Positions 1,321-63,700 of a stretch of 64,000 bases of DNA are shown one piece after another. The stretch lies in IMG/VR virus record IMGVR_UViG_3300009502_000019. One strand, 5' to 3'. This DNA is from a virus. Taxonomy: Duplodnaviria; Heunggongvirae; Uroviricota; Caudoviricetes. Made by a program: the position numbers and the translations under genes. The first letter of the stretch is position 1. Every line of letters starts with the position of its first letter. The notes below the pieces were generated by a model. The model searched no databases and was not told the origin of the DNA. It saw only the letters and a program-made list of their open reading frames with translations.

Positions 1321-1342
1321 TACTTCTTCCTCCCTTGTTTGG

Positions 1343-3964: not shown

Positions 3965-3977
3965 ACTGCCGTCTCCC

Positions 3978-4493: not shown

Positions 4494-4497
4494 GGGG

Positions 4498-4947: not shown

Positions 4948-4960
4948 TTTCTAACCTCCG

Positions 4961-5167: not shown

Positions 5168-5342
5168 AACTAGTCCTTTCGCTTAACCCTTATCCTGCGG
5201 CCGTTCTTACTGAGCTTGTATCCATTCTGGTAAAGGCATATTTGATAGTAGATGCACCGCGGCTGCCCAAACCCTCCTGAACATACCAACGGGTTTCTCG
5301 TAACCACCACGTTGGTTATGTAATGACCAGCAGCACAGTCGT

Positions 5343-13526: not shown

Positions 13527-15914
13527 TTAGTTCACCTTGACCTCCTCTAGTTCGCCCCAGTTCTTGCCGAACGAGTAATCAAACTTCATAGGCACTTTTA
13601 GCCACGAAAAGCTTCTAGGAAGGTCAATGGAACATACACTGTTCATCTCATGAGCAACATCGTAAAGAGGCTCCTCGGGGCCCTCAAACACTATTGAGTC
13701 ATGGACCGTAAGAATCGTCCTGACGGGTAGCTTATACTTGGCTATGATTCGTCGCATCCTTACCATCGTAAACAAAATCATGTCTGAACTACTGCCCTGA
13801 ACAGGACTGTTTACGGCCTGCCTAGTGATATCATCAGGTACATTGGTTGCTAATACGCCTTTTGCCTCTGGAAACCGGCGCATCCTTCCTGTAGGATACT
13901 CCACAAACCCGCATTTTGACAAAACACGTCTGGTCCTGGCGTACCAGGGTTCAAAACCCGTATACGTTGAGAAGTACGCGTTACGAAAAGCCCTACACTC
14001 TTCAATCGACAACTTAACCCCATACTTCGTCTCTGCGTACACCTGGAACCCTTCTGCAGACTGCCCGTAAACAAAGCCAAAATTGATCCCCTTAGCGATT
14101 TGACGCTGATCCTTGGTTACGTCCTTCTCTGCAACGTGGAGGGCCTTAGAGGCCGTTAAACGATGAATATCATGCCCATCCTGGTAGGCTTGTATCATTG
14201 TCGGCTCCGGAGCAACAGAACAAGCCACCCTGAGCTCCATCTGACTGGCATCTGCCTGAAGCAGAATACATCCGGGAGAGGCCACAAACATCTTCTTTAC
14301 AGCCTTGTCCCTAGGGATGTTCTGGAGGTTTGGCCCTGAGCTGGAAAGCCGTCCTGTGCGGGCACCACAGATATTGAAATTACCGTGAAGCCTACCATCG
14401 TCCTTTATAAGCCCCGGAAGCTTCTCCACATAGGTTGAAAGCATCTTCTCATGCTTACGTATTCTGATTAGATACGTCGCCAGCTTATACCCCTGCCTTG
14501 ACAGGTTCTCAAGAACCTCATTATCGGTACTTAGTAATCCAGACTCTGTCTTCTTGAGAACAGGATATTTCAGTACCTTAAACAAAAGATCACGTAACTG
14601 CTTAGTAGAGCTTAGGTTAACATCTTTTGACTCAGGGTATGTGTCAGCGATAGCCTCATACACGGCCTCGAGCCTTCTGTGAATATCTCCAGCAAGTGCT
14701 GTACTCGCGGCAGTGTCTATGAGAACCCCTTCAAGCTCCATACCAACAATAACCTCAATCATCGGCATCAAAACAGTCTCAAACAGGCTCCACATTACCG
14801 GGCTAAGCCGGATCTCGGGCTCAAACTTGCGAAACAGCCCCATGGTGTTGTTGCAGTCTTCACAGTTGTAAATGCACAGCTTTACCATGTCCTTCGTAAA
14901 CTCGAACATGCACCCATCCAGGTACTCTGCTGACAGCTGCTTAAGGCCTATCGAGTGCCTGTTCTCGTCAAGTAAAAACGCCATAACCATCGTATCAGCG
15001 TAAAAGTTCTTATAGGAAACCCCCATCTTCACGAGAACCTTAAGGTCAAACGCGGCATTGTGTGCGATCTTCTTAGACGGTCCTGACATGACAGTCCTCA
15101 CTAGATCCCAACACTTATCACGGAACTCAATGTTAACGTTCTCAGGATGGTCCAAAGGAACCGAGTAACACTTCCCTCCACCAAGGCCAAATCCGCAACT
15201 CCATAGATTCATCGCCTTGTCAAAAACGTCAAGCATCTCATTAGTCTCAACGTCAAAACTAATGAGCTCTGGTGAGGCCAACACAAGATCGCTATACGCC
15301 GCGGCAAGCTTATCTTCGGTGTCCACAACGATAAAGTTGTTATCCGAACCAAGATCGTTGTGCAGATACCGGTGGGCCGTATTAAGATCTTTTCTAAGCC
15401 TTGGTAGGGAAGTTGGATTACGAATACAATATGCCGGGTCGATAACAGGAAGAAAAGTCATGCCCATAGTCTGCATGAAATTACCGGCCCTACTCATGAT
15501 GCGTTCTTTGGGAAAAAACGCCTCCAGAGCTGCTGCTCCGACAAGCACAACAAGCTTCGGCTTTAGATCCTTTAGCTCATTAAAAAGATACATGCCAGTG
15601 CAAAGCTTCAGAGCCTTCTTCTTTGGAGGCTCATTCGCTGGCGGGTTGCACCGGCATGCGTTCGTAAAAGTTACTTGTGATACGTTAAAACCTACCTGTG
15701 ATAGTGTCTTTCTGAACAGCTTTCCGCTCTCACCGCCAAATGGAACCCCTTCAACAGCGTCAATCCCTGTTGGAGCATCACCAACAACAACTAAATCATT
15801 GTTGCAGGTGTACGAAGGAACAAAAATACGCGACAAGTATGGGCACTTGGCGCATTCTTCTCGCTTAGTTTTGTCTTCATTCTTAGCAGATATGAGCTTT
15901 GCAACATTGACCAC
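13527..15914 (-). CDS. Family A DNA polymerase with N-terminal UDG-like domain and 3'-5' exonuclease
   Basis: 795 aa. PolA motifs: ADASQMELRVAC (motif A), RQIAKGINFGFVYG (motif B), VHDSIVFE (motif C). Exonuclease motif ISFDVETNE. N-terminal ~170 aa has a family-4 UDG-like GDAPTG...GESGKLF motif. Confidence 0.9.
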   Translation of the reverse strand: MVNVAKLISAKNEDKTKREECAKCPYLSRIFVPSYTCNNDLVVVGDAPTGIDAVEGVPFGGESGKLFRKTLSQVGFNVSQVTFTNACRCNPPANEPPKKKALKLCTGMYLFNELKDLKPKLVVLVGAAALEAFFPKERIMSRAGNFMQTMGMTFLPVIDPAYCIRNPTSLPRLRKDLNTAHRYLHNDLGSDNNFIVVDTEDKLAAAYSDLVLASPELISFDVETNEMLDVFDKAMNLWSCGFGLGGGKCYSVPLDHPENVNIEFRDKCWDLVRTVMSGPSKKIAHNAAFDLKVLVKMGVSYKNFYADTMVMAFLLDENRHSIGLKQLSAEYLDGCMFEFTKDMVKLCIYNCEDCNNTMGLFRKFEPEIRLSPVMWSLFETVLMPMIEVIVGMELEGVLIDTAASTALAGDIHRRLEAVYEAIADTYPESKDVNLSSTKQLRDLLFKVLKYPVLKKTESGLLSTDNEVLENLSRQGYKLATYLIRIRKHEKMLSTYVEKLPGLIKDDGRLHGNFNICGARTGRLSSSGPNLQNIPRDKAVKKMFVASPGCILLQADASQMELRVACSVAPEPTMIQAYQDGHDIHRLTASKALHVAEKDVTKDQRQIAKGINFGFVYGQSAEGFQVYAETKYGVKLSIEECRAFRNAYFSTYTGFEPWYARTRRVLSKCGFVEYPTGRMRRFPEAKGVLATNVPDDITRQAVNSPVQGSSSDMILFTMVRMRRIIAKYKLPVRTILTVHDSIVFEGPEEPLYDVAHEMNSVCSIDLPRSFSWLKVPMKFDYSFGKNWGELEEVKVN

Positions 15915-16667: not shown

Positions 16668-18623
16668 CTATTTTACTAAAATCTTGACTATACTATCCTT
16701 GGCGATGTTCTCGTACGAAAGGTCTATGTCACAATGACCATTTTTAACCTGCTTCCCGTCTTCTAACGAGACGCCTGGGGTAGTGACAATCACAGCGCCA
16801 GCCTTTACGAGAACGTCTTTAAGGCTAATCATATTGGAGTAGAAGTGCAGCATGGACTTCCTGGCATCCTGCACGTAATCCGCTCCGTACGCCGTAATAG
16901 ACTTTCCTATGTACCCTTCGGCAAAATAGAACTTGTTTCCTTCTGGAGACGTTACCAAAAGACCGAGCATCTTCTGCTTATCCTTGATCTTTGACTTCGC
17001 GGTGCATACCACATTATTCGGGTTAACCACGTGGTTTCTTTCCATGCTCTTTGTCTTCTCTGATGCGACGATAATCGTAAACGGAACTTCAAGGCCGGAC
17101 TCGGTCTCACCCCACCCACCGTCACAGTTAAAGTAGTTGAGCATCACGATATACGACGCCTGCTTCTGGTTCTTTACATAAAACAGCTCAGACGCTCCAT
17201 TAGGCCCTGGCGCGTCAGTAACGTCTCCGGAAAACAAAACGTCGCTGTCTCCTGACCTGTAATAGCCATCCCATCCCATCTTGTCACCGTCGCAACGAAT
17301 TAAAGACAAGTCCAGATCAACTCGGTTTTTACCTACGTTACCCCAGTGAACACCTACAATGATATCCTTAGGAACAAACACGGAAGTTCCGGATGGAAGG
17401 TCCCCGGTAAACTGCTTCTCTGTCGTAGGAAGGGAGTACTGAACTCCAGTAGGCAGGTAAATCTTCTTTCCATCGACCTGTGGCTTGATGTCGTTAGCAA
17501 TAGAGTCGACAACCTTGGACAAAGCTGCATCGGCCACGTCCTGCTCTTGAAAGTCGAACTTCGTCGCGAAGCTCTTGCCATTGCGCACCTTATACAAGAT
17601 AGACTCCGCGTCCGTGGTCCGGTACTTTAGTGCATACGCAAGGCGTATTTTTCTGAAGATGTTTGCCTTAGACAGCTCAGCGTCCATAACCTTTGTATTA
17701 AGCCCCGTGCCGGACTTAATCTTTGCCGTTACTGAGTTCAAGTAATCCTCAGGCATAGGCTTGTGATTCTTCACAGCGAGCTTCCGGATCTTATTGATGA
17801 TTATCTTGAGCCCAGGCTTAGTCCTGAATGCCAGAAAGAGTGGCTTAAACCGATAAAAGATCTCAGCAAGCTTCTCAAGCCCATAGCTATCCTTGTACCT
17901 CTTCAGAAGCCCATATACGGCAAGGTTGTCCTTTGTCTTGATGTCAGCTATGGTCATCCTGTCCTTGATAAGCATAGTCGTATTAGTGGACTTGTAGACC
18001 AAGTACCGCAAAAACTCGGTCGGGTCCGAAGGAAGCACATTTGTGAGGTCATAGAGCGCGACCCGTACTTCCTTATTCTTAACTGCAAATATCTCCGCCT
18101 GGCTGAACCCGATGAACGTAATGAGGTCAATGACGTCAACCTTTGTATCATCGCTAAGAGCGATACCAGACCCAAGAAACGTAGTAAGCTTTTCTTTTAG
18201 CTCAGCCTTTGTGTACCCCTTAATTACAGTCAGGCTGACCTTGTCTAGCTTGACTTTAGGAATAGTGAGCTTCTCCGCCGGTATGTAGACAGAGTCCTGG
18301 CTGTACACACCCATGGCCTCAAATCCGTAAGTAGTTATGTAGTGAACAACCTGCTCAAGAAACAGCTGCTCAAGGCTCGCGTCACGGACCTTAGACCACG
18401 ACTTATGAAAAGACGCATTCATCTTGTCACCAGAGAGACCTACTTCTCGTGACACCACATCGACCAATTTCAAGAGCTCCTTTTCAGTGTAGTTACCGGC
18501 GACAACTGGAGAAAAGATAAAACCCTGCCGTACTGTAGCTGTCATAATCTCTTTACTGACGGCGCTTGCTAACCTGCTGTCGGAAACTGGAACTGCTTTG
18601 AACAACCGGATCGATGCTTTCAT
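16668..18623 (-). CDS. Large hypothetical protein; C-terminal region weakly TerD-like (speculative)
   Basis: 651 aa. The segment VDLDLSLIRCDGDKMGWDGYYRSGDSDVLFSGDVTDAPGPNGASE resembles the TerD-domain pattern DLD...SGD..TG.G.GDDE. Confidence 0.5.
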   Translation of the reverse strand: MKASIRLFKAVPVSDSRLASAVSKEIMTATVRQGFIFSPVVAGNYTEKELLKLVDVVSREVGLSGDKMNASFHKSWSKVRDASLEQLFLEQVVHYITTYGFEAMGVYSQDSVYIPAEKLTIPKVKLDKVSLTVIKGYTKAELKEKLTTFLGSGIALSDDTKVDVIDLITFIGFSQAEIFAVKNKEVRVALYDLTNVLPSDPTEFLRYLVYKSTNTTMLIKDRMTIADIKTKDNLAVYGLLKRYKDSYGLEKLAEIFYRFKPLFLAFRTKPGLKIIINKIRKLAVKNHKPMPEDYLNSVTAKIKSGTGLNTKVMDAELSKANIFRKIRLAYALKYRTTDAESILYKVRNGKSFATKFDFQEQDVADAALSKVVDSIANDIKPQVDGKKIYLPTGVQYSLPTTEKQFTGDLPSGTSVFVPKDIIVGVHWGNVGKNRVDLDLSLIRCDGDKMGWDGYYRSGDSDVLFSGDVTDAPGPNGASELFYVKNQKQASYIVMLNYFNCDGGWGETESGLEVPFTIIVASEKTKSMERNHVVNPNNVVCTAKSKIKDKQKMLGLLVTSPEGNKFYFAEGYIGKSITAYGADYVQDARKSMLHFYSNMISLKDVLVKAGAVIVTTPGVSLEDGKQVKNGHCDIDLSYENIAKDSIVKILVK

Positions 18624-18921: not shown

Positions 18922-19485
18922 TTATTTTGCTGTCAATGTCAACACGGCCGGATTAACCACACCCTTTGACTCTTTAACTCCCCAGATCTTGTTATGTGCC
19001 TTCCTGATCTTCTCCGCGTTCTTCCTGTTCTTAGCCTTTGCTATCCCAAGAGCAAGTGCACACGCGTACGTGTTACCACTATGACCGTCATCAATAAGTG
19101 AGTCAATTTTCTTTAGTGACCTACCGTTGTCGATCAGTAACGCGATCTTATTACCCTCGTTTGTAATAAAATCATTGTACGCCTTGTCACCGGCCATACG
19201 CTCGTCCTTTGTCTGAAAGTCATTAGCAATACACCACACATGCTCAAATGTGTCGTCTGTGAACACCTCAAACCCGATTACAGTACTCCCCTGGACAGTC
19301 CAGGTCCTGATGAATGCCCCTGGAACTATAATCTTCTCCCAATCCTTCTCCGGATGCCAAAAGTCCTTGCGCTTAGCCCCACTCCAGCTACACCTGTCAA
19401 ACTCAAAGTCTACCTGGCCCTCTCCGTTCCACTGCACCTTAGTTATCTTCTCAATATGCGGTGTAAACATGCTAGATCCTTTCAA
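18922..19485 (-). CDS. Hypothetical protein
   Basis: 187 aa ORF. Confidence 0.5.
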   Translation of the reverse strand: MKGSSMFTPHIEKITKVQWNGEGQVDFEFDRCSWSGAKRKDFWHPEKDWEKIIVPGAFIRTWTVQGSTVIGFEVFTDDTFEHVWCIANDFQTKDERMAGDKAYNDFITNEGNKIALLIDNGRSLKKIDSLIDDGHSGNTYACALALGIAKAKNRKNAEKIRKAHNKIWGVKESKGVVNPAVLTLTAK

Positions 19486-20062
19486 GTATGTAATCTGTGG
19501 ACTTTTTCAAGTCCGTGTTGACCACTTCCTCGTACGGAATCTTGTATAAGCGCAGGAAGCCGCGTATGCTCTCGTCAATCCTCTTCTGAATCTCGTAATT
19601 GGAGTGCCTAAGGTTATCCTTGATCGGAAACTTTTTACCCGGCTTGATGTAAAATACCTTGTCATACGTCTGTGCGGACTCCAAAGTCATGTCTAAGAGC
19701 TCCCTAACCCACATGCGGTCCTTAGGGGACTTCATATCCGCCTTAAACACTCCATAAACGTATGATACGAACACAGGGCTGTCACATACGATGTAGTCAT
19801 ACTGTGTGCTGATGGCGTTTTCTAGAAGCCTGTTCCACGTTAAGAATATTAGCATCTGCTCCGATATGTGCTCAGGGTGCCCATACTTCTCGATGTAGTC
19901 CCTCGGATACTCCAGGATGTACTTCGCGTTCTTGTTCCTGACCTTCAACTGTGTGGCAAGGTTGAGGGCCAGTGTAGTCTTACCGGACGCTGGCGCCCCA
20001 ATCAATGCCACTATTTTTGATTTGGACTGCATAACACTCCTGGAGTAAACGAGTACCCGCAC
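19472..20062 (-). CDS. P-loop kinase, NadR-like ribosylnicotinamide kinase (or a polynucleotide/nucleoside kinase)
   Basis: Walker A IVALIGAPASGKTTLALNLA, then EYPRDYIEKYG and DYIVCDSPVFV. This resembles the NadR RNK-domain pattern SGKSTL...EYGRDYV...DTDFVTT. The true start is probably the internal Met (MQSKSK) near 20032. Confidence 0.45.
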   Translation of the reverse strand: MRVLVYSRSVMQSKSKIVALIGAPASGKTTLALNLATQLKVRNKNAKYILEYPRDYIEKYGHPEHISEQMLIFLTWNRLLENAISTQYDYIVCDSPVFVSYVYGVFKADMKSPKDRMWVRELLDMTLESAQTYDKVFYIKPGKKFPIKDNLRHSNYEIQKRIDESIRGFLRLYKIPYEEVVNTDLKKSTDYILERI

Positions 20063-23711: not shown

Positions 23712-24080
23712 TCATCTTGACGCCTTCCTCCTTAAAAATAACGGGGTTGTCTCACCAACCCATCCGCCTTCTACGTTAAAGGACATATGTTCGATCGCAT
23801 CCTCCTCTGTCATACCCTCTCCCACAAGGACCTTAATGCATTCGTCGTAGTCATAACACGCCAGAGGCTTATTGAACTGGCAGGCGATTCCTACAAAAGC
23901 GTCCTCAAACCCGTCGGCTAGCAGAATCCTGTCCTCTTCACTGTACCCTAAGTCTTCAATGAACTCGTTAATGGAATCCCGCTTCCTACCAGCAGTACCA
24001 CGAGGAATTACTTCCGGGATCTGTGGAGATACTTTTTTCTTCTTTTTCATCGTCGGAAGTGCTTTTTTATTCTTTTTCAT
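23712..24080 (-). CDS. Hypothetical protein with lysine-rich N-terminus
   Basis: 122 aa ORF. Confidence 0.4.
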   Translation of the reverse strand: MKKNKKALPTMKKKKKVSPQIPEVIPRGTAGRKRDSINEFIEDLGYSEEDRILLADGFEDAFVGIACQFNKPLACYDYDECIKVLVGEGMTEEDAIEHMSFNVEGGWVGETTPLFLRRKASR

Positions 24081-24501
24081 TAGATGCCTCCAAGTAACGT
24101 ACCGCTTCGTGTAAAACTAAAATAGAGTCGCCGCTGTACCCTAGCATAAAGTTGCACCGAGCGCATAGTAAGCCCCTGATAGCTCCAGTAGTATGGTTGT
24201 GATCAACGCTAAGCCGTTTTTTTCCTGGGCATGTTTCAAAACATATAGCACATCTACCACGCTGTTTATCAAACAGCCTATCATACTCTTCTAAACCTAT
24301 ACCATAGTTATACTTAAGAGCTTCTCTTCGTTTTGATTCGGCTCCTTTAAGCGACTTACGGTATTGACGCCTAAGTTCCTTACACTCCGGAGAACTATAG
24401 TATTTTCTCCTCAACTCTTTGACTCTATCAGTCCTCTGATACTGTCTTTCGCGCTCTTTTACCTCCGGCAATTTGCGGCGCTGTCTATTGTACTCTCGCA
24501 T
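24067..24501 (-). CDS. Endonuclease VII-family HNH nuclease
   Basis: 144 aa. CAICFETC...LSVDHNHTTGAIRGLLCARCNFMLG matches the Endonuclease_7 signature. Confidence 0.7.
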   Translation of the reverse strand: MREYNRQRRKLPEVKERERQYQRTDRVKELRRKYYSSPECKELRRQYRKSLKGAESKRREALKYNYGIGLEEYDRLFDKQRGRCAICFETCPGKKRLSVDHNHTTGAIRGLLCARCNFMLGYSGDSILVLHEAVRYLEASNEKE

Positions 24502-25059: not shown

Positions 25060-25080
25060 TTTATCCCCCTTTTATGTTAG

Positions 25081-25152
25081 TGCACCCACCAGGGCTCGAA
25101 CCTGGAACCAAAGGATTATGAGTCCTCTGCTCTACCATTGAGCTATGGGTGC
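25081..25152 (-). tRNA. tRNA-Met (anticodon CAT), or a lysidine tRNA-Ile
   Basis: Folds by hand: acceptor GCACCCA/TGGGTGC, D-arm GCTC-AATGGTA-GAGC, anticodon stem GAGGA/TCCTT with loop CTCATAA, T-arm CCAGG-TTCGAGC-CCTGG. CCA is not encoded. Confidence 0.8.
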
Positions 25153-27955: not shown

Positions 27956-28507
27956 CTACCGGTAGCATTTGAGATACTGTATAGCAGACTCGAGGATCTC
28001 AATGTTGTCACCACATTGACCGAGTATGAAATTGCATTTGTCACATAGGAGCCCGCGTACCTGGCTTGACATATGGCAATGATCCACCGACAGCTGCCTT
28101 CCAGGAGTCTGAAGTTTGCTACAGATAGCACACTTTCCGTCTTGGTTTGTAAACATTGTGTCGTACCACTCTGAAGTAACGCCAAATTCTTTTTTTCGAT
28201 GGTAGTCTTGGTGTTTTCTCTTGTTATTTTTGTACCTGTCTTTTCCCTTCTTGTTAGAGCAGCCTTTACAGTAGCACGCCACTCCGAAAGCCGTGTGTAT
28301 GTCTTTACCAAACTCATCTAGAGGTTTTGTCTCATGACACTTTGGACAATATGACTTTCCTTCTTTAATGAGTTTTTCTCGCCGGGTCATTGGTAGCTCA
28401 TAGGATCCATGGCGACGCAATCTAAAATAATGCGCGTTACATAGGCCACTTCTTTTGCTTGCAGCTTCTTTCTCACAGTTTGGCACTTTGCATGGTATAG
28501 TACTCAT
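27956..28507 (-). CDS. Endonuclease VII-family HNH nuclease with N-terminal zinc-finger domain (paralog of 24067-24501)
   Basis: 183 aa. CAICSK...LSVDHCHMSSQVRGLLCDKCNFILG. The N-terminus has CKVPNC...CNAHY and CPKCH zinc motifs. Confidence 0.7.
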   Translation of the reverse strand: MSTIPCKVPNCEKEAASKRSGLCNAHYFRLRRHGSYELPMTRREKLIKEGKSYCPKCHETKPLDEFGKDIHTAFGVACYCKGCSNKKGKDRYKNNKRKHQDYHRKKEFGVTSEWYDTMFTNQDGKCAICSKLQTPGRQLSVDHCHMSSQVRGLLCDKCNFILGQCGDNIEILESAIQYLKCYR

Positions 28508-28586: not shown

Positions 28587-29534
28587 CTATTCATACAGGC
28601 TTTGTTTTATGTACTCTTTGAATATAAGTGCGGTCTTTTTTCCAATAGCAGTTTGGGCTTCTTTACTAAAAACAATTTCTCCGACACTCTCTTTAAGCAC
28701 GTCCTCAACCATTGCTTTTATAATAGCCCCTGTTTCTGTAATAGTAGCATCCGGAAACCTATCAAGCACATGCATGAGGCGTTGACGCGTGACCCACTCG
28801 TCCGCGATAGCCTGTGCCTCTGTGAGTACTTCAAGGCGCTCTTTAGACACCTCTCTTTTCTTGGCAGTCTCCTGGAACTTCTCATTCTTGTGCTTGGCTA
28901 TTATCCGCTCACCATTGTTCTTCCGGAGCTCAACAAGAGTCCGTAAAACCACACCTTCACGGATATGCCCGGGCCCAACACCATTCCGCACAGCCTGGAC
29001 AGAGTCTGCCTCGGAAAGTGCATTTAAAACATCAAGATCTGTGGCAACCTCTTCATAATGAACAAACTCAATGCCGAGCTGAGCACACACAGACTCCGCG
29101 TTAGGCACAGCAAGCCAGTTTCCACCAAGCTTGACGTCGAAGGCTATAAACTTAAGCTCTTTGCCGTATGTGCCAGACATGCCCTGCTGCTTGCCACCAT
29201 AAGCTTCCCCAAAAACAATGAGCTCCTTGATGTTCATGGCTCGAAACTTGTTTTCTAGGTCTTGGTGGTTAAACAGTTTTATAAAGTTTTCGTGCTTTTC
29301 ACCGCCGGAGAAAAAATGCAGTTCAATCTTGTCAGGCCAGCGTTCTTGCCATTCAGCCTCAGTGTACCGCCTCGCGTCCTCGTTAACACCAATGATAGGT
29401 CCAAACACAAGCTGCCTGGACCGGTCAAGGCTAATATGTGCTGATGTTCCGTGGATCTTCTCCATAGCGTAGCAGCGCTTGAACATAAGAATTTCCTGGT
29501 TCTTGTAAAGATTATCTATCCCGAGATAGCCCAT
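28587..29534 (-). CDS. RNA ligase, Rnl2 (T4 RnlB)-like
   Basis: 315 aa. Motif I EKIHGTSA (lysine nucleotidyltransferase), matching T4 Rnl2 EKIHGTN, plus the downstream nucleotidyltransferase core. Confidence 0.7.
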   Translation of the reverse strand: MGYLGIDNLYKNQEILMFKRCYAMEKIHGTSAHISLDRSRQLVFGPIIGVNEDARRYTEAEWQERWPDKIELHFFSGGEKHENFIKLFNHQDLENKFRAMNIKELIVFGEAYGGKQQGMSGTYGKELKFIAFDVKLGGNWLAVPNAESVCAQLGIEFVHYEEVATDLDVLNALSEADSVQAVRNGVGPGHIREGVVLRTLVELRKNNGERIIAKHKNEKFQETAKKREVSKERLEVLTEAQAIADEWVTRQRLMHVLDRFPDATITETGAIIKAMVEDVLKESVGEIVFSKEAQTAIGKKTALIFKEYIKQSLYE

Positions 29535-34635: not shown

Positions 34636-34959
34636 TTATTCCCCCTTGTTTGTTGTTGGTGCCACTTGGCACGTTATTGTAATAAACTCTGCTGGACAAA
34701 CCGGCTTTACAAACACATTTATATTGCGTTCGCCATTTGTTACGGCACAATCCACTCCAAAATACTCGGCGGATATTCCCAAGACTTCTACCATCCTTCG
34801 CCGTAACTCAGCAACGGCAAACTCGAAAGTAGTTTCAGGGGGTTTTGGCCTCCTAGCTACTTCCTCAAACGACGCCGCCCTGAATACGGGTCTCACTATG
34901 TATTCTCCGCTTCTTTCTCTTTTGGTGCTAACGTAACGCGAGTGTCCGTGGCAAACCAT
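34636..34959 (-). CDS. Hypothetical protein carrying the shared AASFEEVARRPKPP motif; start uncertain
   Basis: 107 aa ORF overlapping the upstream gene's 3' end. Motif PVFRAASFEEVARRPKPPE is shared with ORF 1343-1987. Confidence 0.35.
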   Translation of the reverse strand: MVCHGHSRYVSTKRERSGEYIVRPVFRAASFEEVARRPKPPETTFEFAVAELRRRMVEVLGISAEYFGVDCAVTNGERNINVFVKPVCPAEFITITCQVAPTTNKGE

Positions 34960-35465
34960 GTCTGGTAAGGGTCCTTGGCCACGGCTTCATTGAAGGCGAT
35001 AACGGCAGCTTCGAGATCAGCAGATGGGTCCCAGTCTTCGTGAACATCGTCTTCAAGGAACTCATACACGTTAAGGACACGGCGTCGGTTCTGTTTGCAG
35101 AGCACTAGCTGCAGTTCCTCTGGCTCCAACCCTTCATCGTCGCAGTAATCAAGCAGGTCCTGCTCGTCAAAGAAGTAGGTGTCCGTGTCATAGATGGAGA
35201 TTGGCGTCTTGTAGTCCCACTGAATGACCTTAAACTTCTCAAACTTCTCTTGCTTTGATTTCTCTCTGCAGGACTCGCACTTTGTCCACCCCTTTTCCAT
35301 GGTTGCTCCACACTCGCACTTCAAGTGAGTGCATCCGGACCAGCGGGCCATGTGCTCATTGTCTCCCCAAAAGTGACCGTCTTTAGACATCCATCCGGTC
35401 ACAGTTACTTTTTTTGCTGCTTCGTCAGAGCTGTATTCGATCATAACGCCCCCTACTTTATGCAC
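34896..35465 (-). CDS. Hypothetical protein with Cys cluster
   Basis: 189 aa. CTHLKCECG...CESC zinc-binding-like cluster and an acidic middle. Confidence 0.45.
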   Translation of the reverse strand: MHKVGGVMIEYSSDEAAKKVTVTGWMSKDGHFWGDNEHMARWSGCTHLKCECGATMEKGWTKCESCREKSKQEKFEKFKVIQWDYKTPISIYDTDTYFFDEQDLLDYCDDEGLEPEELQLVLCKQNRRRVLNVYEFLEDDVHEDWDPSADLEAAVIAFNEAVAKDPYQTWFATDTRVTLAPKEKEAENT

Positions 35466-36919
35466 CCGAGACGCTTGCGAATGTCTGCAAGTGTGTACTC
35501 GGTTACGATTTTGCCATCTTCAAATACGGTTGTAAGCAGCCCAAGATCCTCTTGTTCTGGCGTGACATCTTCAATCATCGTGAGCTCTCCGGTTGTAGCA
35601 TCTTGATTAACCTGCAAGAGCCCGCGGGCGGACTTCTTGATCCCGCTATCGGTTTTCGGGTCCTTGTAGATAGTCACAGGCTTTCCGTTGATGATGCCCC
35701 AGGTAGCTTTCATGGCAAACCCGAAGGTGTCACGTGTCACAAACTGGTAAGTGTAGCTTCCGATGCCAAACACCATGTTCGTGGACGCAAACCCCTTTCG
35801 TGCAAGACCTTCACAAATGGCTTCGCACCGCTCAAGTGTGATGCTGTCGCCATAGATTACCCCAATGTGCTTGTCGAGTTGCTTGAACCCTTTAGCGTTT
35901 GTGTAGCCGCCAAAGGTGTTCCACAGAAGCTCAACAGTGCCGGCTTTGGCTGCTGGATCATCACTCACAGCGTCGCCACAGATGATCTTCACAGGATCAC
36001 CACTGTCGGGGCGAACCACAAGCCGACCGTTCCGGTTCATAATTACATCTTTTAGAGCCGGAAGGGTCTTCGTGATCACATTCCAGTAGTCCCATGTGTC
36101 AGACACAACAGAGACAATGCCAGTAGGATAGATCTCAGTAAGGAGCCTGCGAAACGTCTCTTCTTCTGACAGAAGACCACCGAGGCACATGACCGAGTGC
36201 TCCGTTGCCGGAACACTGCCACCTACCATCTCCTTGTCAGAGTCAGCGCCGTAATATTCTTCAAGGAAGTCGATCGCTGGGACCGTGTCCGTGCCCGTAA
36301 AGCTAAGCAGATGGCCAGCAGCAGACATTAGGGCTCCCTCAATCCCAAATATTCCTCGCATCGAGAAGTCATGGCCCTGCCAGTTGACAAACTCCGGAAT
36401 GTCAGATGTCCTTGCCGCGTACCCATCCAGCATCTTTCTGTAGGCGTAGGCTGTAGATGCTGAAGTGGTTGGGCCCCACACGATATTACACATGACTGTT
36501 TCCATGAAGTTTGTTAGCCAAAAAAACTTCGGGTGGGTGTTCCGGATCGTTAGGATCGGAATACGCATCGGACACAGAGTTCCTTCTGGAAGAGCTTTGA
36601 GCAGAATAGGAAGGTATCCAAGATCATGAAGCTCCCCAACGTGCTCAATGGGAACAGAGTCTTTTCCAAGAGCATTATCAAGGCGCCGTTTGTACTTGCG
36701 AACAACCTCGTCTTTTGGTTGGTTGAAAAAGTCCTCATTCCACCGCTTAATCAAGTACTCTTTGACAAAATACTGGATTCCAAACACGACCACGTGGTCG
36801 ACCCCAGGCACACGGCTCCCGCGAGGCGTTAGATTGGAGTACACGATCTCAGTTCCTGTCGGGTACTGCCTTCTATGGTCTGTTTTGTAGAAATCCTTGA
36901 GTACAATGGGTGAAATCAT
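35453..36919 (-). CDS. nadV: Nicotinamide phosphoribosyltransferase (NAMPT/NadV)
   Basis: 488 aa, collinear with NAMPT/PBEF family proteins (length and core GIQYF...DSGDP...GVIYGD). Confidence 0.8.
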   Translation of the reverse strand: MISPIVLKDFYKTDHRRQYPTGTEIVYSNLTPRGSRVPGVDHVVVFGIQYFVKEYLIKRWNEDFFNQPKDEVVRKYKRRLDNALGKDSVPIEHVGELHDLGYLPILLKALPEGTLCPMRIPILTIRNTHPKFFWLTNFMETVMCNIVWGPTTSASTAYAYRKMLDGYAARTSDIPEFVNWQGHDFSMRGIFGIEGALMSAAGHLLSFTGTDTVPAIDFLEEYYGADSDKEMVGGSVPATEHSVMCLGGLLSEEETFRRLLTEIYPTGIVSVVSDTWDYWNVITKTLPALKDVIMNRNGRLVVRPDSGDPVKIICGDAVSDDPAAKAGTVELLWNTFGGYTNAKGFKQLDKHIGVIYGDSITLERCEAICEGLARKGFASTNMVFGIGSYTYQFVTRDTFGFAMKATWGIINGKPVTIYKDPKTDSGIKKSARGLLQVNQDATTGELTMIEDVTPEQEDLGLLTTVFEDGKIVTEYTLADIRKRLGCIK

Positions 36920-37341: not shown

Positions 37342-37769
37342 TTCCCCTCCTTCTCAAGAGTGGACAGGCGGTTCTGGAGTTCTTTGTTTTCAGCCTCCAG
37401 TTTTTCAAATGCACAATCAAACGCATAATCTCCTTTTGAAGCATCCTCCATAATCTTTTCCAACTCAGCGTTACGAGTGCGGAGTTCTTCCATTTCCTTA
37501 TCCTTGCGCTCAATACATTTTTTGACTTGAACAAACTGCCAATCATTTTCTTTCAGCCTTTCTTCCAACTCTGCGTTCTCACGCTTGAGGTCGGCTATCG
37601 CATCCAAGGCATTCTCGCCGGTTACTTCCTTCGAGTGCCCCGTTATGCCCAGAGCTTCCTCGATTTCTTCTATCAGCTGATCTTTCAGCGTTAGGATGAT
37701 ATCCAAACTTTCAACACGGGCCTTAAACTCCCCAAGTTGCCTGTTCATGTCTTTTTCCTTATCGCTCAT
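37338..37769 (-). CDS. Coiled-coil protein (segmentally paralogous to 58864-59643)
   Basis: 143 aa, heptad-rich. Shares NKELQNRLSTLEKEGK / EELRTRNAELEK with the plus-strand protein at 58864. Confidence 0.5.
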   Translation of the reverse strand: MSDKEKDMNRQLGEFKARVESLDIILTLKDQLIEEIEEALGITGHSKEVTGENALDAIADLKRENAELEERLKENDWQFVQVKKCIERKDKEMEELRTRNAELEKIMEDASKGDYAFDCAFEKLEAENKELQNRLSTLEKEGK

Positions 37770-38527
37770 TTCACTTTACCTTTCAGTGTGTATATCTCGT
37801 CGATAATGCCGTCGAAGACTTCCATTCCTTTGGTGAAAAAGCCATGTGACACCATGAGAATGACCTTCTTGGCACCCTTTTCACGAAGGACCTTGGCGAT
37901 CTCAATGAAAGTCTTGCCTCCGTCGCAAATATCGTCAACAATTACACAGGTGTCCCCTTCCAATGAGTCGGCATAGACAACCGTTCCGGTGATGGCTCCT
38001 GTCCGCGGCTCCCGTTTCTTCGAACACTCAACAACACCCAAGATCCGGTTGGTCATAGAAGGAAGGTCGCTGATCTTGTTGATCTTCTTCCTGGCACCGC
38101 CATCCGGGCAGATCAACTTAAACGGCTCTATCTCCCTAAGCATCGGTTCAAAGATCTCATGCTGATGTATTACAAGGCAGTTGTGGATAAGGGCTGTTGA
38201 AACGTCCGAGTGTGGGTCAGCGATCTCCACGACAACCCCCAGCGAGTTGATAATGCCGGCGAATACCTCCAAGGAGAAGCACTCCCCTGATACAGCGACC
38301 CTATCCTGCCTTCCAAAAGGAACATACGGCATAAATATTCGTTCAAGGGTTAGACCAGCATGCTTTAGGGCATTGGCAATGAGCATAAGCTCAACCAGCT
38401 CCTCGGTCCTCTCGAAGTAGAACTCAATCGCAACTTCGTCGTTCGGGGTGTAACTGTGCACCTTAACGTGCATTTCTCCAACCGGAAACTTGAATGTTTC
38501 GTGTGTAAACCCAAGACCCTTAATCAT
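37766..38527 (-). CDS. prs: Ribose-phosphate pyrophosphokinase (PRPP synthetase)-like
   Basis: 253 aa. PRTase-type PRPP-binding loop VIVDDICDGGKT and an N-terminal Prs fold. Confidence 0.75.
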   Translation of the reverse strand: MIKGLGFTHETFKFPVGEMHVKVHSYTPNDEVAIEFYFERTEELVELMLIANALKHAGLTLERIFMPYVPFGRQDRVAVSGECFSLEVFAGIINSLGVVVEIADPHSDVSTALIHNCLVIHQHEIFEPMLREIEPFKLICPDGGARKKINKISDLPSMTNRILGVVECSKKREPRTGAITGTVVYADSLEGDTCVIVDDICDGGKTFIEIAKVLREKGAKKVILMVSHGFFTKGMEVFDGIIDEIYTLKGKVK

Positions 38528-52218: not shown

Positions 52219-54358
52219 AGAAATGAAAGTCCCGGCATTCATATGGTCTGCGGAGGGATCGATCGAGGAGTCTGCTCTGTCACAGATCAGCAACCTCTCG
52301 AAGCTCCCATTCGCGTTCCACCACATCGCGATCATGCCGGACTGCCACTCTGGATATGGCATGCCAATCGGTGGCGTGTTGGCCGCGGAGCGTGTGGTTA
52401 TTCCTAACGCGGTTGGTGTGGATATCGGTTGTGTTGACAAAGATACAGAGTTTCTTACTGGTTTTGGATGGAAGAAAATTTCGGAGTACAAGGATGAAAA
52501 AGTAATGGAGTACTGTCCAGATACTGGGGCAGCTAGACTTGTTACGCCTGAGAACTACATAAAGGTGCCGTGCGAAAAATTTATACATTTTAAAACAAAA
52601 TATGGCATTGACCAAATGGTTAGTGAAGATCACAGATGTTTAGTATTCCTTAACGATAGGAAGACCAACTTCTCTAAGTATCAAGTAGACTTGGCTTCTG
52701 AAATACTTCAAAAGCACTTGTCCACAAAAACAGGATACAGGCATAGATTTGTAACAACATTTACTCCGGAATTAATAACACGTGTTAGTCTTACAGACGC
52801 CGAGCTAAGAGTAATGGTAATGTTCTGTGCCGACGGCTACATAGACAGAACTCGGGGGCTACTCAGGGTCAAAAAAGATAGGAAAGTTAAGCGTGCAATA
52901 AAGCTACTGAATGATGCTAATATAAAATATATACAAAGTGTCAATAAGTATGATGGTGTAACTCATATACGATTTTCTCCTCCTATTCTTGAGAAAGGTC
53001 TAAAGCAATTTTGGAATGCTAGTTTTGAGCAGCTTCTTGTAGTAAATGATGAAGTGCTACATTGGGACGGTAACGAGAAAGATCAAGTATTCTTTACTCG
53101 GAATCGGGAAGACGCTGATTTTGTTCAATACGTCTTCTCCTCGTGTGGATTTAGGAGTGTTCTTCGGACAGATATTGGGAGAAGCGGGCTAGATAGTGAA
53201 TTAGACTATCGAGTATTTAGATCAACTAGCACTAAAATAGGAATGAACGGGTACCCAAAAACTAAAATGTCGTATGCTAAAAGTGAAGACGGGTTTAAGT
53301 ATTGCTTTACAGTCCCGTCTGGATTTTTTATCGCAAGAAGAAACGGGAACGTGTTTGCAACAGGAAACTGTGGTATGTGCGCTCTAAAGACTCCGTGGAC
53401 AACTGAGTGGATCACCAAAGAGGTCATTAAGAAGCTCTTTGGAGGCTCGAAGGAGCATCACGGCGGCATCAGAACGGTTGTACCGGTAGGGTTTAGTCAC
53501 CACGGTGAAAAACAGAACGAGCAGCTTATGCCTGAAACGCGATCAATTCGCCAGGCTTTCCTAGTCGACTCAAGTATTGTTGAGCAGGAGTACCAGTCTG
53601 CCTTGAAGCAGATTGGGACGCTCGGCGGTGGGAACCATTTTATCGAAATACAGAAGGATCAGACTGGGTTTATTTGGATCATGATTCACTCGGGAAGTAG
53701 GAACATTGGCTTTAAGGTTGCTAAGCACTACAATGACCTCGCTAAGGAAATGACTGCAAAGTGGTTTTCGTCAGTTCCAAAGGAGTCTGACTTGGCATTT
53801 CTTCCTATAGACAGCACTGAAGGTCAGAAGTACCTACTTGAAATGCAATACTGTGTCGAGTTTGCGCTGGCTAACCGCAAGCTAATGATGGAGCGCATTG
53901 TAAATGTGTTTAACAGCACTCTTGGTGGCAGCATCGACATGAGCGGAATGATAAACATTGCTCACAACTACGCCACTGTCGAAAGCCATTTTGGAAAGAA
54001 CGTTATGGTTCACAGGAAGGGAGCGACTTTAGCCAGAGAAAACACTATCGGCATCATCCCTGGATCTCAGGGCACCAAGAGCTACATCGTCAAGGGTAAA
54101 GGTAATCAAGAGAGCTTTATGTCCTGCTCACACGGCGCCGGCAGGACTATGAGCCGTACCAAGGCTGAGAACACCCTAAACCTTGAGGAAGAGCAGAGGC
54201 GTCTGGACGATCAGGGCATCATTCACGGTATCCGGACAGCAAAGGACCTTGATGAAGCTGCGGGCGCGTACAAGCCGATTGATCAGGTAATGAAGAACCA
54301 GGAAGATCTCGTCGAGATCGTGGTTGAACTGCAGCCTTTAGGGGTCATTAAAGGCTGA
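52199..54358 (+). CDS. rtcB: RtcB RNA ligase interrupted by an intein (precursor)
   Basis: Exteins match RtcB: HHIAIMPDCHSGYGMP..GVDIG|CGM...NHF...HNYA...SHGAGR. Insertion is precisely at the conserved GVDIG-CGM site. Confidence 0.85.
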   Translation: MYKFKNEEMKVPAFIWSAEGSIEESALSQISNLSKLPFAFHHIAIMPDCHSGYGMPIGGVLAAERVVIPNAVGVDIGCVDKDTEFLTGFGWKKISEYKDEKVMEYCPDTGAARLVTPENYIKVPCEKFIHFKTKYGIDQMVSEDHRCLVFLNDRKTNFSKYQVDLASEILQKHLSTKTGYRHRFVTTFTPELITRVSLTDAELRVMVMFCADGYIDRTRGLLRVKKDRKVKRAIKLLNDANIKYIQSVNKYDGVTHIRFSPPILEKGLKQFWNASFEQLLVVNDEVLHWDGNEKDQVFFTRNREDADFVQYVFSSCGFRSVLRTDIGRSGLDSELDYRVFRSTSTKIGMNGYPKTKMSYAKSEDGFKYCFTVPSGFFIARRNGNVFATGNCGMCALKTPWTTEWITKEVIKKLFGGSKEHHGGIRTVVPVGFSHHGEKQNEQLMPETRSIRQAFLVDSSIVEQEYQSALKQIGTLGGGNHFIEIQKDQTGFIWIMIHSGSRNIGFKVAKHYNDLAKEMTAKWFSSVPKESDLAFLPIDSTEGQKYLLEMQYCVEFALANRKLMMERIVNVFNSTLGGSIDMSGMINIAHNYATVESHFGKNVMVHRKGATLARENTIGIIPGSQGTKSYIVKGKGNQESFMSCSHGAGRTMSRTKAENTLNLEEEQRRLDDQGIIHGIRTAKDLDEAAGAYKPIDQVMKNQEDLVEIVVELQPLGVIKG
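52430..53368 (+). mobile_element. Intein (313 aa) with LAGLIDADG-like homing endonuclease domain inside rtcB
   Basis: Begins with Cys (CVDKDTEFLTG) and ends ...VFATGN, followed by the extein Cys (CGM). Internal LTDAELRVMVMFCADGYI resembles a LAGLIDADG motif. Confidence 0.75.
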
Positions 54359-62225: not shown

Positions 62226-62311
62226 TGGTGGCCGAGGCGGGACTTGAACCCGCACGTCCTTTCGGACACAAGCCCCTCAAACTTGCGCGGCTGCCATTAC
62301 GCCACTCGGCC
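62226..62311 (-). tRNA. tRNA-Leu (anticodon GAG), class II with long variable arm, CCA encoded
   Basis: Hand fold: acceptor GGCCGAG/CTCGGCC, D-arm GTGGCGTAATGGCAGCCGC, anticodon stem CAAGT/GCTTG with loop TTGAGGG, variable stem-loop GTCCGAAAGGAC, T-arm GCGGG-TTCAAGT-CCCGC, 3' ACCA. Confidence 0.7.
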
Positions 62312-62320
62312 AATAAAATT

Positions 62321-62530
62321 ATGAATCACGTTTTTAAAGCTGCTACTCAAGACGAAGTACGAAAGCGTATATTCGCGTGTGTTGACTGCAACTACTTCTT
62401 AGATAACTTAGGTGGTATACAAAGCGTGTGTTCGAAGTTTTACCCAAGCATATCCATACAACTTACGGATCCGAACAGCTCTGTTCCAAAGTGGTGCCCG
62501 TTAAAAGATGGTGGGCACGGTAGGACTTGA
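62321..62530 (+). CDS. Small protein between tRNA genes (paralog of 61446-61724); 3' end overlaps the tRNA on the opposite strand
   Basis: ATG at 62321. CVDC and Cys/Pro-rich. Confidence 0.3.
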   Translation: MNHVFKAATQDEVRKRIFACVDCNYFLDNLGGIQSVCSKFYPSISIQLTDPNSSVPKWCPLKDGGHGRT

Positions 62531-62592
62531 ACCTACACGTCCGAAGACACAGGCTTCTAAGACCTGCGCGGCTGCCATTACGCCACGTGCCC
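62509..62592 (-). tRNA. tRNA-Leu (anticodon TAG), class II
   Basis: Same D-arm as the other Leu tRNAs. Anticodon stem CAGGT/GCCTG with loop CTTAGAA. T-arm GTAGG-TTCAAGT-CCTAC. CCA encoded. Confidence 0.7.
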
Positions 62593-62670
62593 TTGGTACC
62601 GGATGAGGGAATCGCACCCACACTTTACGGCTTTTAAGACCGTCGCCTCTGCTATTGGGCTAATCCGGCT

Positions 62671-62756
62671 TGGTGCGAGTGGAGGGACTCGAACCCCCAC
62701 ATCCTTTCGGACATCGGCTTTTGAGACCGACGCGGCTGCCATTACGCCACACTCGC
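62671..62756 (-). tRNA. tRNA-Leu (anticodon CAA), class II
   Basis: Anticodon stem TCGGT/GCCGA with loop CTCAAAA; variable arm GTCCGAAAGGAT; CCA encoded. Confidence 0.7.
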
Positions 62757-62761
62757 TTGAT

Positions 62762-62846
62762 TGGTGCGATCGGCAGGACTTGAACCTGCACGGGGTTGAC
62801 CCATAAGCTTCTGAGGCTTACGCGGCTGCCATTACGCCACGATCGC
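62762..62846 (-). tRNA. tRNA-Leu (anticodon CAG), class II
   Basis: Anticodon stem TAAGC/GCTTA with loop CTCAGAA; T-arm GCAGG-TTCAAGT-CCTGC; CCA encoded. Confidence 0.7.
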
Positions 62847-62847
62847 T

Positions 62848-62926
62848 TGGTCTCTCTGGTCAGGGTCGAACTGACATGATATCCTGTTTAGAAGACAGGT
62901 GGACTATCCAATTATCCCACAGAGAG
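62848..62926 (-). tRNA. tRNA-Arg (anticodon TCT)
   Basis: Acceptor CTCTCTG/CAGAGAG. Anticodon stem CCTGT/ACAGG with loop CTTCTAA. T-arm GTCAG-TTCGACC-CTGAC. CCA encoded. Confidence 0.65.
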
Positions 62927-62927
62927 G

Positions 62928-63611
62928 TTAGAACTTCATTCTTCTTCCCGGCATCCATCCTTTTGATAAATATGACATAAAATCTGATTCTGTTACTTTT
63001 ATGGATTTTTTAAGGCCAGGATTGTAAATCCACTTTTTCCCATATTGGGAATTTCCTTTCCCGGACTGTGCTTTTGATACTATTGACCCAATATATTTTT
63101 TATGCTCTTCTGTGTGATGTTTATTTTTGAACCTCATTCCATCTTTTAGGCTAAAAAATCCAGACTTGTTTTTCCGTTGAGTTTCTATACTTTTCTTATG
63201 TGCTGGCTTGCGAAGTTTTTCATTATTAAATCCAATTCCCTTCTCTTTGCACATATTACCAATAGCAACCATCTTCTTTCTTGTTTCTTCTTTATTTGGA
63301 TTATTTGTAAAATAATCTCCACCCTCGCCACCCGGTGTTATGTTGTATCCCTTAGACCAGGTACAGCCTACATCAGCTATCCAAGCTATTTCTAATTCAT
63401 TTAGCTCTGCTTTACTATAAGCACAATCAATGGGTCGTATCTTAAATCTACCTTGACCGTACTTTTTCATAACACGTCTTATTATGACACCACTTGGTTT
63501 GTATTTTGGATCAAACCTACTTCCTTTGTGTTGACCAATGTATCTCATATTGGTCACCAAATCAGTTACCAAGTAAATGTAACCATAACAATTTTCTAAT
63601 ATCCTGTTCAT
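62928..63611 (-). CDS. GIY-YIG homing endonuclease (SegB/I-TevI-like) inserted in the tRNA cluster
   Basis: 227 aa and AT-rich. N-terminal GIY-YIG core YGYIYLVTDLVTNMRYIGQHKG. NUMOD-like HTEEHKKYIGS repeats. Basic DNA-binding C-terminus. Confidence 0.8.
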   Translation of the reverse strand: MNRILENCYGYIYLVTDLVTNMRYIGQHKGSRFDPKYKPSGVIIRRVMKKYGQGRFKIRPIDCAYSKAELNELEIAWIADVGCTWSKGYNITPGGEGGDYFTNNPNKEETRKKMVAIGNMCKEKGIGFNNEKLRKPAHKKSIETQRKNKSGFFSLKDGMRFKNKHHTEEHKKYIGSIVSKAQSGKGNSQYGKKWIYNPGLKKSIKVTESDFMSYLSKGWMPGRRMKF

Positions 63612-63624
63612 ACTTACTCCAGGT

Positions 63625-63700
63625 TGGTACCTCTACTCAGATTCAAACTGAGATGTGTAGTTTCGAAGACTACCGCCTTATTCAATTAGGCCATAGAGGT
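63625..63700 (-). tRNA. tRNA-Arg (anticodon TCG), tentative
   Basis: Acceptor ACCTCTA/TAGAGGT. D-arm GCC-TAATTGAATAA-GGC. Anticodon stem GTAGT/ACTAC with loop CTTCGAA. T-arm CTCAG-TTTGAAT-CTGAG. 3' ACCA. The A1 start and the T-loop are atypical. Confidence 0.5.

Follow-up and report, generated by a model that had tools for sequence, protein, structure and literature searches.

The window, that is, the whole 64-kb stretch of DNA analysed here, comes from an uncultured jumbo (giant) phage. Contigs bearing exactly these proteins reach up to 202,599 bp, so that the genome measures at least 200 kb, and the DNA polymerase encoded in the window shows at most 33% identity to any GenBank phage. The window-wide Pfam picture is the precomputed annotation of identical public contigs. 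The features under discussion are collected in Table 1. They include a replication and recombination module (with genes for a fused SbcCD, RecA, gp32, UDG-PolA, an AAA_28 kinase, the UvsW helicase, a Toprim primase, DnaB, two endonuclease VII proteins and an Rnl2-like ligase), a block with genes of NAD and nucleotide supply, a run of small genes holding RtcB and a HAD phosphatase, and an array of tRNA genes.

Table 1. Position, strand and basis of the features discussed (numbering of the 64-kb window)
Feature	Position	Strand	Size and basis
Replication and recombination module	~6.9-29.5 kb	minus	Pfam on identical contigs
NadR-RNK-like P-loop nucleoside/nucleotide kinase	19472-20032	minus	186 aa; reassigned from polynucleotide kinase
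tRNA-Met, apart from the array	25080-25152		ARAGORN/Rfam
Rnl2-family ATP-dependent RNA ligase	28587-29534	minus	315 aa; nucleotidyltransferase domain and probable C-terminal Rnl2-like domain
Block with Band_7, TPM, LemA, NAMPT and PRPP synthetase	31-38.5 kb		Pfam on identical contigs
NAMPT/NadV	35453-36919	minus	Pfam NAMPT_N and NAPRTase; NCBIfam PRK09198, 568.7 bits (cutoff 405)
PRPP synthetase	37766-38527	minus	Pfam Pribosyltran/Pribosyl_synth; NCBIfam ribP_PPkin, 110.7 (cutoff 113)
Run of small genes including RtcB and HAD	45-62 kb	plus	
RtcB 3'-P/5'-OH RNA ligase precursor	52199-54358	plus	719 aa; predicted spliced extein 406 aa
Predicted intein in RtcB	52430..53368	plus	313 aa, RtcB residues 78-390; directly before Cys of DIGCGM
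Small ORF between RtcB and HAD	54360-54863	plus	167 aa
Small ORF between RtcB and HAD	54860-55126	plus	88 aa
Standalone 'Swiss-army-knife' (SAK) HAD phosphatase	55123-55704	plus	193 aa; Pfam HAD_SAK_2 (PF18143)
tRNA array: Leu GAG, TAG, TAA, CAA, CAG and Arg TCT, TCG	62226..63700	minus	ARAGORN; Rfam tRNA 48-73 bits

A preliminary description of this DNA had recognized an Rnl2-like ligase with an EKIHGTSA motif I, and the ORF is present where it was placed, with EKIHGTSA at residues 25-32. It matches Pfam RNA_ligase (6.3e-13, 49.7 bits for a cutoff of 27) and PHROG 548 'RNA ligase' (7.8e-30). The ligase motifs follow in order, namely I (K26, H28, G29), III (E110), IIIa (F129/F132), IV (E193/G194) and V (K214/K216). 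Their residues are invariant both in a three-way alignment with T4-like RnlB and across 39 family members. The sole sequence relative in the PDB is T4 Rnl2 (2hvq), aligned from motif IV through the C-domain (phmmer, residues 180-294 of the ligase with 190-309 of T4 Rnl2, E 3.2e-5). Because the score with the NCBIfam Rnl2 equivalog TIGR02307 (2.4e-14, 53.6 bits) lies far under its cutoff of 197.15, and the match to Pfam T4_Rnl2_C (0.016, 16 bits) is likewise under its cutoff of 27, the protein is, as judged from its sequence, a member of a divergent Rnl2-family clade and not an ortholog of T4 Rnl2. This clade is very large in metagenomes (4352 homologs of ~285 aa, the top 120 with identities of 51-69%) and has no characterised member. 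Among GenBank phages, the closest homolog is found in LR745208.1 (a 485-kb phage), relative to which the window ligase has ~29 additional residues inserted behind motif I; no other gene of the window occurs in the 40 kb around the ligase of LR745208.1.

The neighbours of the ligase family were surveyed in 67 loci (141 ORFs), where DNA ligase was found 12 times, Metallophos seven times, Thg1 five times, DnaB four times and further RNA ligases three times. Thg1 is an RNA 5'-end repair enzyme. Adjacency of the ligase to DnaB is seen in the window and twice elsewhere, but the idea that it is in general a gene of replication modules was rejected on the basis of these four DnaB neighbours and is kept only as part of a minor rival explanation. 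According to the latter, the genes considered here are unconnected and belong to general nucleic-acid and nucleotide metabolism: RtcB alone would repair tRNA, the ligase would act in replication and recombination (e.g. on RNA 3'-OH nicks in RNA:DNA hybrids) and the HAD protein would be a nucleotide or protein phosphatase. This explanation is judged unlikely, if still worth carrying along. The scarcity of DnaB in the survey indicates that the replication link is not general, and the presence of Thg1 and of further RNA ligases in the same survey tells against this explanation, as does locus L131, where the ligase family stands beside a genuine Pnk in a canonical Rnl1-Rnl2-Pnk cluster. In addition, no solved enzyme of the ligase's clade is known to act on DNA-only nicks.

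The second ligase announced by the preliminary description, RtcB, is confirmed as well. Its match to Pfam RtcB (9.1e-108, 361.6 bits) is split into two stretches, and the match to the PHROG 'tRNA splicing ligase' reaches 1.2e-113. The translation contains DCHSGYG, DIGC/GM, GGGNHF, HSGSRNIG, AHNY and SHGAGR; the roles of DIGCGM, GNHF, HSGSR and SHGAGR as metal-ligand and His-nucleophile motifs are presumed after the P. horikoshii and E. coli enzymes. Of 50,697 GenBank phage records, 708 contain a homolog of RtcB. No gene for the RtcB partners Archease or RtcA was seen in the 64-kb window.

An intein inside RtcB was missed in the preliminary description. The insert that separates the two stretches begins with a cysteine (C78) and finishes in ...ATGN (N390), directly followed by Cys391, and lies in frame within DIGC/GM. 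Once residues 78-390 are taken out, the remaining extein aligns with phiRSL1 RtcB in one piece (1-406, 39.6% identity). An element 36% identical to the insert interrupts the ribonucleotide reductase ORF of another locus (L061) with the same ends (G/CVDASTEF...ITGN/T). Furthermore, PHROG matches to PhoH-like proteins (phrog_32482) and to the large terminase (phrog_979) are confined to the insert, and we read them as probable intein-bearing members of those families. From its termini and from the homolog in the reductase gene, the insert can be concluded to be an intein and, given the same element in that gene and the PHROG matches to other host families, a mobile one.

The contrary explanation, that the insertion is not a splicing intein and RtcB is a disrupted pseudogene, which would leave the phage with only one working RNA ligase, finds some footing in the insert itself, which lacks the usual penultimate His (it ends in ...TGN), has no match at E<=1 to the curated Pfam models for inteins, Hint/intein-splicing domains and LAGLIDADG/homing endonucleases, and no match in a sequence search of the PDB. 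However, the reading frame is open across all 719 codons and the identical RtcB protein recurs on many contigs, 18 of which were examined and have an adjacent, equally conserved HAD gene. The Cys at the start, the Asn at the end and the Cys that follows also argue against disruption, as does the homolog with the same termini that lies in frame in the reductase gene. Finally, NCBIfam has dedicated models for RtcBs of this kind, and one of them ('intein-containing RtcB family protein') is the best NCBIfam match of the ORF, albeit with a score below the cutoffs (NF052663 and NF038162; 333.7 versus 1050). A pseudogene is hardly credible in view of these points. With the insert taken as an intein, it sits against the Cys of DIGCGM, presumably a metal ligand, and because of this position the ligase activity of RtcB must depend on the predicted protein splicing.

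Downstream of RtcB, two small ORFs precede the HAD gene. The first encodes a Cys-rich HNH/EndoVII-like protein (weak match to phrog_1035, endonuclease VII, 0.007) and the second a zinc-ribbon-like protein (weak matches to zinc-ribbon models, 0.04-0.07); they are regarded as context, and a repair role is assigned to neither. Since the successive genes abut or overlap by 4 nt and no terminator-like site is predicted on the plus strand between 50404 and 57500, RtcB and HAD are probably co-transcribed, which holds equally for the entire gene block.

The preliminary description had noted a HAD-family hydrolase with a DVDGV motif two genes beyond RtcB, and FLDVDGV is indeed found at residues 52-58. 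HAD_SAK_2 is the sole Pfam family that this protein matches (2.5e-23, 83.4 bits, gathering threshold 27.5). Its core spans residues 48-193 (55264-55704), preceded by a Cys-rich stretch of 47 residues (CxxC...CxxC) that is seen in few homologs only. The catalytic motifs I-IV are complete, with D54/D56, S106, R137 and D158/D159 invariant and S105 and D160 nearly so, and the predicted structure has the HAD Rossmannoid fold (pLDDT >90). SAK proteins were reportedly defined by Burroughs and Aravind in 2016. In jumbo phages, SAK HADs are mostly encoded as single-domain proteins, with a predicted function in clearing linear phosphates ahead of ATP-dependent RNA ligases (Iyer et al. 2021, PMC7824862). 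No report of a biochemical characterisation of HAD_SAK_2 was found in the literature, and the RNA-repair label of the family is a computational one.

How far this label holds was assessed from gene neighbourhoods. A scan of viral contigs with the HAD sequence alone found nothing, and an alignment-based scan succeeded. Within 10 kb, the 80 viral HAD_SAK_2 loci contain a single RtcB (L057, likewise two genes away) and a single AAA_28-like kinase, and a relative as close as 54% identity has no RtcB within 10 kb. Among 136 large neighbours of HAD_SAK_2, RNA_ligase and TROVE appear twice each, the commoner ones being DnaB, terminase, Metallophos and NAD synthase. BLAST clustering of the neighbours gave no family recurring in more than seven of the 80 loci. 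One copy of HAD_SAK_2 is located in a 60-kb integrase-bearing (temperate) phage or prophage without repair genes. RNA ligases near HAD_SAK_2 are rare in other phages (roughly 5 of 74 loci), and a conserved tie of the family to RNA ligases or RNA repair genes is not borne out in the viral loci surveyed. Because HAD_SAK_2 only rarely adjoins RNA ligases in other phages, a role of the window protein in RNA end healing is put forward tentatively and may be wrong.

The P-loop kinase of the preliminary description, given there as the minus-strand ORF 19472-20062, is present and reads 196 aa from a GTG, with the Walker A sequence GAPASGKT; on identical public contigs, the start is an internal ATG. 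The interpretation of this ORF as a polynucleotide 5'-kinase is not supported. The protein matches Pfam AAA_28 (1.4e-15), with AAA_33 matching the P-loop alone. PHROG ranks 'thymidylate kinase' first, and the JGI label on its homologs is 'nicotinamide riboside kinase'. It aligns to positions 162-321 of the 325 positions of the NCBIfam NadR model TIGR01526, which we take to be the ribosylnicotinamide-kinase half. In a search with a profile of 80 family members, NadR structures are the only full-domain matches among the best 60 of 116 (6gye 1.4e-11, 1lw7 3.6e-11, 9x6f and 8x7f), followed by deoxynucleoside kinase, and no polynucleotide kinase figures among these best 60. The best match of the predicted fold is again the NadR ribosylnicotinamide-kinase domain. 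These matches in HMM, profile and predicted fold, and the genes for NAMPT and PRPP synthetase in the window, argue against the polynucleotide 5'-kinase; specific similarity of the kinase to proteins of nucleotide or NAD metabolism, which the preliminary description itself had named as telling against its scheme, is what was found.

Published work provides a setting for such a kinase. NadV is present in 33% of jumbo phages, the P-loop domain of NadR phosphorylates nicotinamide riboside, and NadR can be found together with NadM, with NadV or with the two of them (PMC9503650). In the window, the kinase is standalone, with no fusion to an NMN adenylyltransferase, and no NMNAT was found. In longer proteins of the family (320-400 aa), the kinase forms the C-terminal part, and searches of Pfam (1e-5) and the PDB gave no match that would make their N-terminal half an NMNAT. 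Nine neighbourhoods of the family (seven distinct) reveal no consistent partner (SmpB three times, NADAR once, YAcAr once). On sequence and predicted structure, the protein resembles a NadR-type kinase that would serve NAD or nucleotide supply with NAMPT and PRPP synthetase rather than RNA end healing. Its gene lies between UvsW and PolA, 15 kb from NAMPT; because of this location in the replication module and of the PHROG label, nicotinamide riboside is no more plausible as its substrate than a dNMP or a nucleoside.

With the ligases, the kinase and the HAD protein in hand, the central proposal of the preliminary description can be weighed, namely that the genes reconstitute healing and sealing in the style of T4 Pnk plus Rnl. 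This proposal is unsupported, the kinase being NadR-like and no T4 Pnk-like gene being detectable in the window. A search of all 804 window ORFs with T4 Pnk (query sequence verified as 100% identical) gave nothing significant. As for the HMM searches that had been suggested as a check, the RNA_ligase and RtcB models recovered their genes with the E-values given above, which, like those of HAD_SAK_2 and AAA_28, lie well outside what chance would give, whereas the precomputed Pfam annotation of the whole window holds no HAD_PNKP, AAA_33 or Zeta_toxin gene. As a positive control, the genuine Pnk of L131 is matched by HAD_PNKP at 8e-48 and by AAA_33 at 1e-17. Pnk homologs are known from 2293 of 50,697 GenBank phage records, and a Pnk may be encoded elsewhere in this genome, of which the window covers 64 kb. 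A 364-aa Metallophos protein (2870-3964) was also considered as a Pnkp-type phosphatase and discarded, as it matches phage exonuclease families (phrog_284, 1.5e-45).

A T4 Pnk function could in principle be split between non-orthologous proteins, the AAA_28 protein acting as 5'-kinase and the HAD protein as 3'-phosphatase on tRNA ends to be sealed by the Rnl2-like ligase, and RtcB providing a separate route. All four genes do exist, the HAD family bears an RNA-repair name with a published prediction of phosphate clearing for ATP-dependent RNA ligases, HAD_SAK_2 comes within 6 kb of the ligase family at three loci out of 80 and has RNA_ligase among its large neighbours in the two cases mentioned, and the ligase family can adjoin a real Pnk (L131). 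Yet the likeness of the kinase to T4 Pnk is confined to 23 P-loop columns, and its closest relative in profile and fold is the NadR ribosylnicotinamide kinase. For the HAD protein, hhalign to the T4 Pnk phosphatase covers 56 columns (motifs I-II) with a probability of 36%. The kinase and the HAD protein are unfused and encoded on opposite strands ~32-35 kb apart, the kinase within the replication module and 9 kb from the ligase, so that kinase, ligase and HAD are spread over different strands and modules. Moreover, neither RNA ligases nor HAD proteins are encoded next to the kinase at any of the seven distinct loci of its family. A split Pnk is quite improbable on this evidence. A bolder version, in which a NadR-fold kinase and a Zn-ribbon-tagged SAK HAD together replace T4 Pnk and feed the Rnl2-like ligase, and in which RtcB is gated by splicing of the intein at its catalytic Cys, has a slighter chance still. 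If this version were true, the kinase would represent a new family of polynucleotide 5'-kinases derived from a nucleoside-kinase fold.

The explanation that we consider probable is that the window holds part of the known RNA-repair repertoire of jumbo phages, with two parallel sealing routes, and does not encode a T4-style heal-and-seal pathway. RtcB would be translated as a precursor and become active only after splicing of its intein. The spliced enzyme would then directly join 2',3'-cyclic-phosphate or 3'-phosphate ends to 5'-OH ends with no need for end healing, and its substrates would be the products of metal-independent anticodon nucleases. In parallel, the Rnl2-like ligase would seal 3'-OH/5'-P nicks in duplex RNA regions, such nicks being left by metal-dependent nucleases or produced when enzymes of the host, or encoded outside the window, have healed the ends. 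These substrates and in vivo targets are those that we infer, as is, more tentatively, the role of the capless SAK HAD: its gene is probably transcribed together with RtcB, and the protein may take terminal phosphates off RNA ends. The standalone kinase of NadR type (ribosylnicotinamide or nucleoside kinase) would serve the supply of NAD+ and nucleotides together with NAMPT and PRPP synthetase. Beside repair, the tRNA array would possibly supply replacement tRNAs.

A function commonly ascribed to RNA ligases of phages is to undo the anticodon-nuclease defences of the host, and the end chemistries that a phage can repair predict which defences it can escape. For the annotation of such genes, the present case provides a plausible-looking 'kinase' that fits NAD or nucleotide salvage rather than a repair pathway, and a SAK HAD family whose association with RNA ligases across phage genomes is loose.

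Compared with known systems, the window ligase has the motif order and invariant residues of T4 RNA ligase 2 (gp24.1, PDB 2HVQ), and its putative C-terminal helical domain aligns to the corresponding part of Rnl2, but it is only ~28% identical to the T4 enzyme and stays far under the Rnl2 equivalog cutoff. The RtcBs of the cultured jumbo phages phiRSL1, Ea35-70 and Psa21 are ~40% identical to the window extein and, in contrast to the window protein, are intein-less. With the intein-containing RtcBs of NCBIfam, the window RtcB shares the full domain, all conserved motifs and the predicted intein at the DIGC/GM Cys, although this intein escapes the curated models and the scores fall under the cutoffs. 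As for T4 Pnk (PseT), the window HAD has in common with it the superfamily motif DxDGT/V and a small cap-less architecture, and the window kinase the P-loop, but neither displays Pnk-specific similarity. The HAD protein is like the other jumbo-phage SAK HADs (PF18143) in its standalone form and complete catalytic motifs, and differs from most homologs by its 47-aa Cys-rich N-terminal extension. The NadR RNK domain (PDB 1LW7, 6GYE and 8X7F) gives the best whole-domain match of the kinase in profile and fold, and the kinase co-occurs with NadV/NAMPT; unlike NadR, it is standalone; its identity to the solved domains is only 18-19%, and it is located in the replication module.

At the level of whole repertoires, no Pnk, 2H, RlaP, KptA or TROVE gene is found in this 64-kb window, whereas RtcB with an ATP-dependent RNA ligase, a tRNA array and a HAD phosphatase are shared with other jumbo phages. 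The preliminary description had regarded two ligase chemistries in one phage as unusual; the pairing is indeed uncommon but already documented in giant phages, the Burkholderia phages BcepSauron and BcepSaruman having RtcB together with Rnl1 and Rnl2 (PMC7824862). With the window, an uncultured jumbo phage that has RtcB and an Rnl2-like ligase joins this documented repertoire.

The canonical end-healing enzyme adjoins the ligase in at least some members of the clade to which the Rnl2-like ligase of the window belongs, since the viral contig locus L131 (4882-7802) carries a contiguous textbook cluster of Rnl1, an Rnl2-like ligase of that clade and Pnk, in which Rnl1 is assigned by RNA_lig_T4_1 and Pnk by HAD_PNKP (8e-48) and AAA_33 (1e-17). 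In a census of 80 viral loci of the clade (L089-L168), comprising 141 large neighbour ORFs, the most frequent neighbours were ATP-dependent DNA ligases (12 ORFs), followed by Metallophos phosphoesterases (7), Thg1-like proteins (5; tRNA-His guanylyltransferase family in Pfam) and DnaB (4).

Both RNA ligase genes of the window have an endonuclease VII/HNH-like neighbour, the one on the RtcB side being a weak match. Such free-standing genes and the intein in RtcB, taken together, are signs of intense selfish-element traffic. The RtcB insert has no match among curated intein models; an element 36% identical to it splits the ribonucleotide reductase (1135-5319) of L061, an unrelated viral contig, and the two share their ends (Cys...TGN|nucleophile). 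A second intein-like insert is also present in the L061 reductase (…NPC|FTGG…VVHN|CSEAL). The NUMOD3 ORF lying within the tRNA array resembles a homing endonuclease. The features of the window are compiled below.

Features of the window, with coordinates and strand
Feature	Position	Strand	Remarks
GroES	1018-1320		
Peptide deformylase	3978-4493		SEC-C motif
981-aa protein, Metallophos + SMC_N + AAA_23	6905-9850		SbcC- and SbcD-like, single polypeptide
Uracil-DNA glycosylase–DNA polymerase A fusion	13527-15914		
651-aa protein	16668-18623	-	Replication module
Endonuclease VII/HNH-like, free-standing	24067-24501		Inside replication module
tRNA-Met, single	25080-25152	-	Inside replication module
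Endonuclease VII/HNH-like, free-standing	27956-28507		Adjoins Rnl2-like ligase gene
Conserved 189-aa protein without known function	34896-35465	-	phrog_11053, 4.6e-43
NAMPT/NadV	35453-36919	-	NAD+ salvage
PRPP synthetase	37766-38527	-	NAD+ salvage
Intein in RtcB, 313 aa	52430-53368	+	Directly before Cys of DIGCGM motif
Endonuclease VII/HNH-like, free-standing (weak match)	54360-54863		Between RtcB and HAD
tRNA array	62226-63700	-	Leu x5 (GAG, TAG, TAA, CAA, CAG), Arg x2 (TCT, TCG)
ORF with NUMOD3 motif, 227 aa	62928-63611		Breaks up tRNA array

Two NAD+ salvage genes are present, and no NMN adenylyltransferase was detected within the 64-kb window. The phrog_11053 gene overlaps the NAMPT stop codon, and its product could be a partner of NAMPT. 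The SbcC/SbcD-like and glycosylase–polymerase proteins are unusual fusions, and the window also has host-like genes. GroES is accompanied by GroEL, and the latter extends past the window start. No Pfam or PHROG family was assigned to the 651-aa protein, the sole match of which, a weak one (residues 409-483, 1.6e-7), is to the MXAN_6230/SCO0854 RING-domain family.

As to the HAD_SAK_2 phosphatase, its metagenomic homolog P0036 has an N-terminal DUF488-N3a domain fused to HAD_SAK_2, a fusion that might be a clue to the real substrate of the family. Among 80 loci, the sole other neighbourhood combining HAD_SAK_2 and RtcB is found in the viral contig locus L057 (9998-12971), where HAD is followed by a gene for an unknown protein of 183 aa, one for an SMC/AAA-like ATPase of 259 aa, and then RtcB; two genes thus separate HAD from RtcB in L057 as in the window, but the order is reversed in L057.
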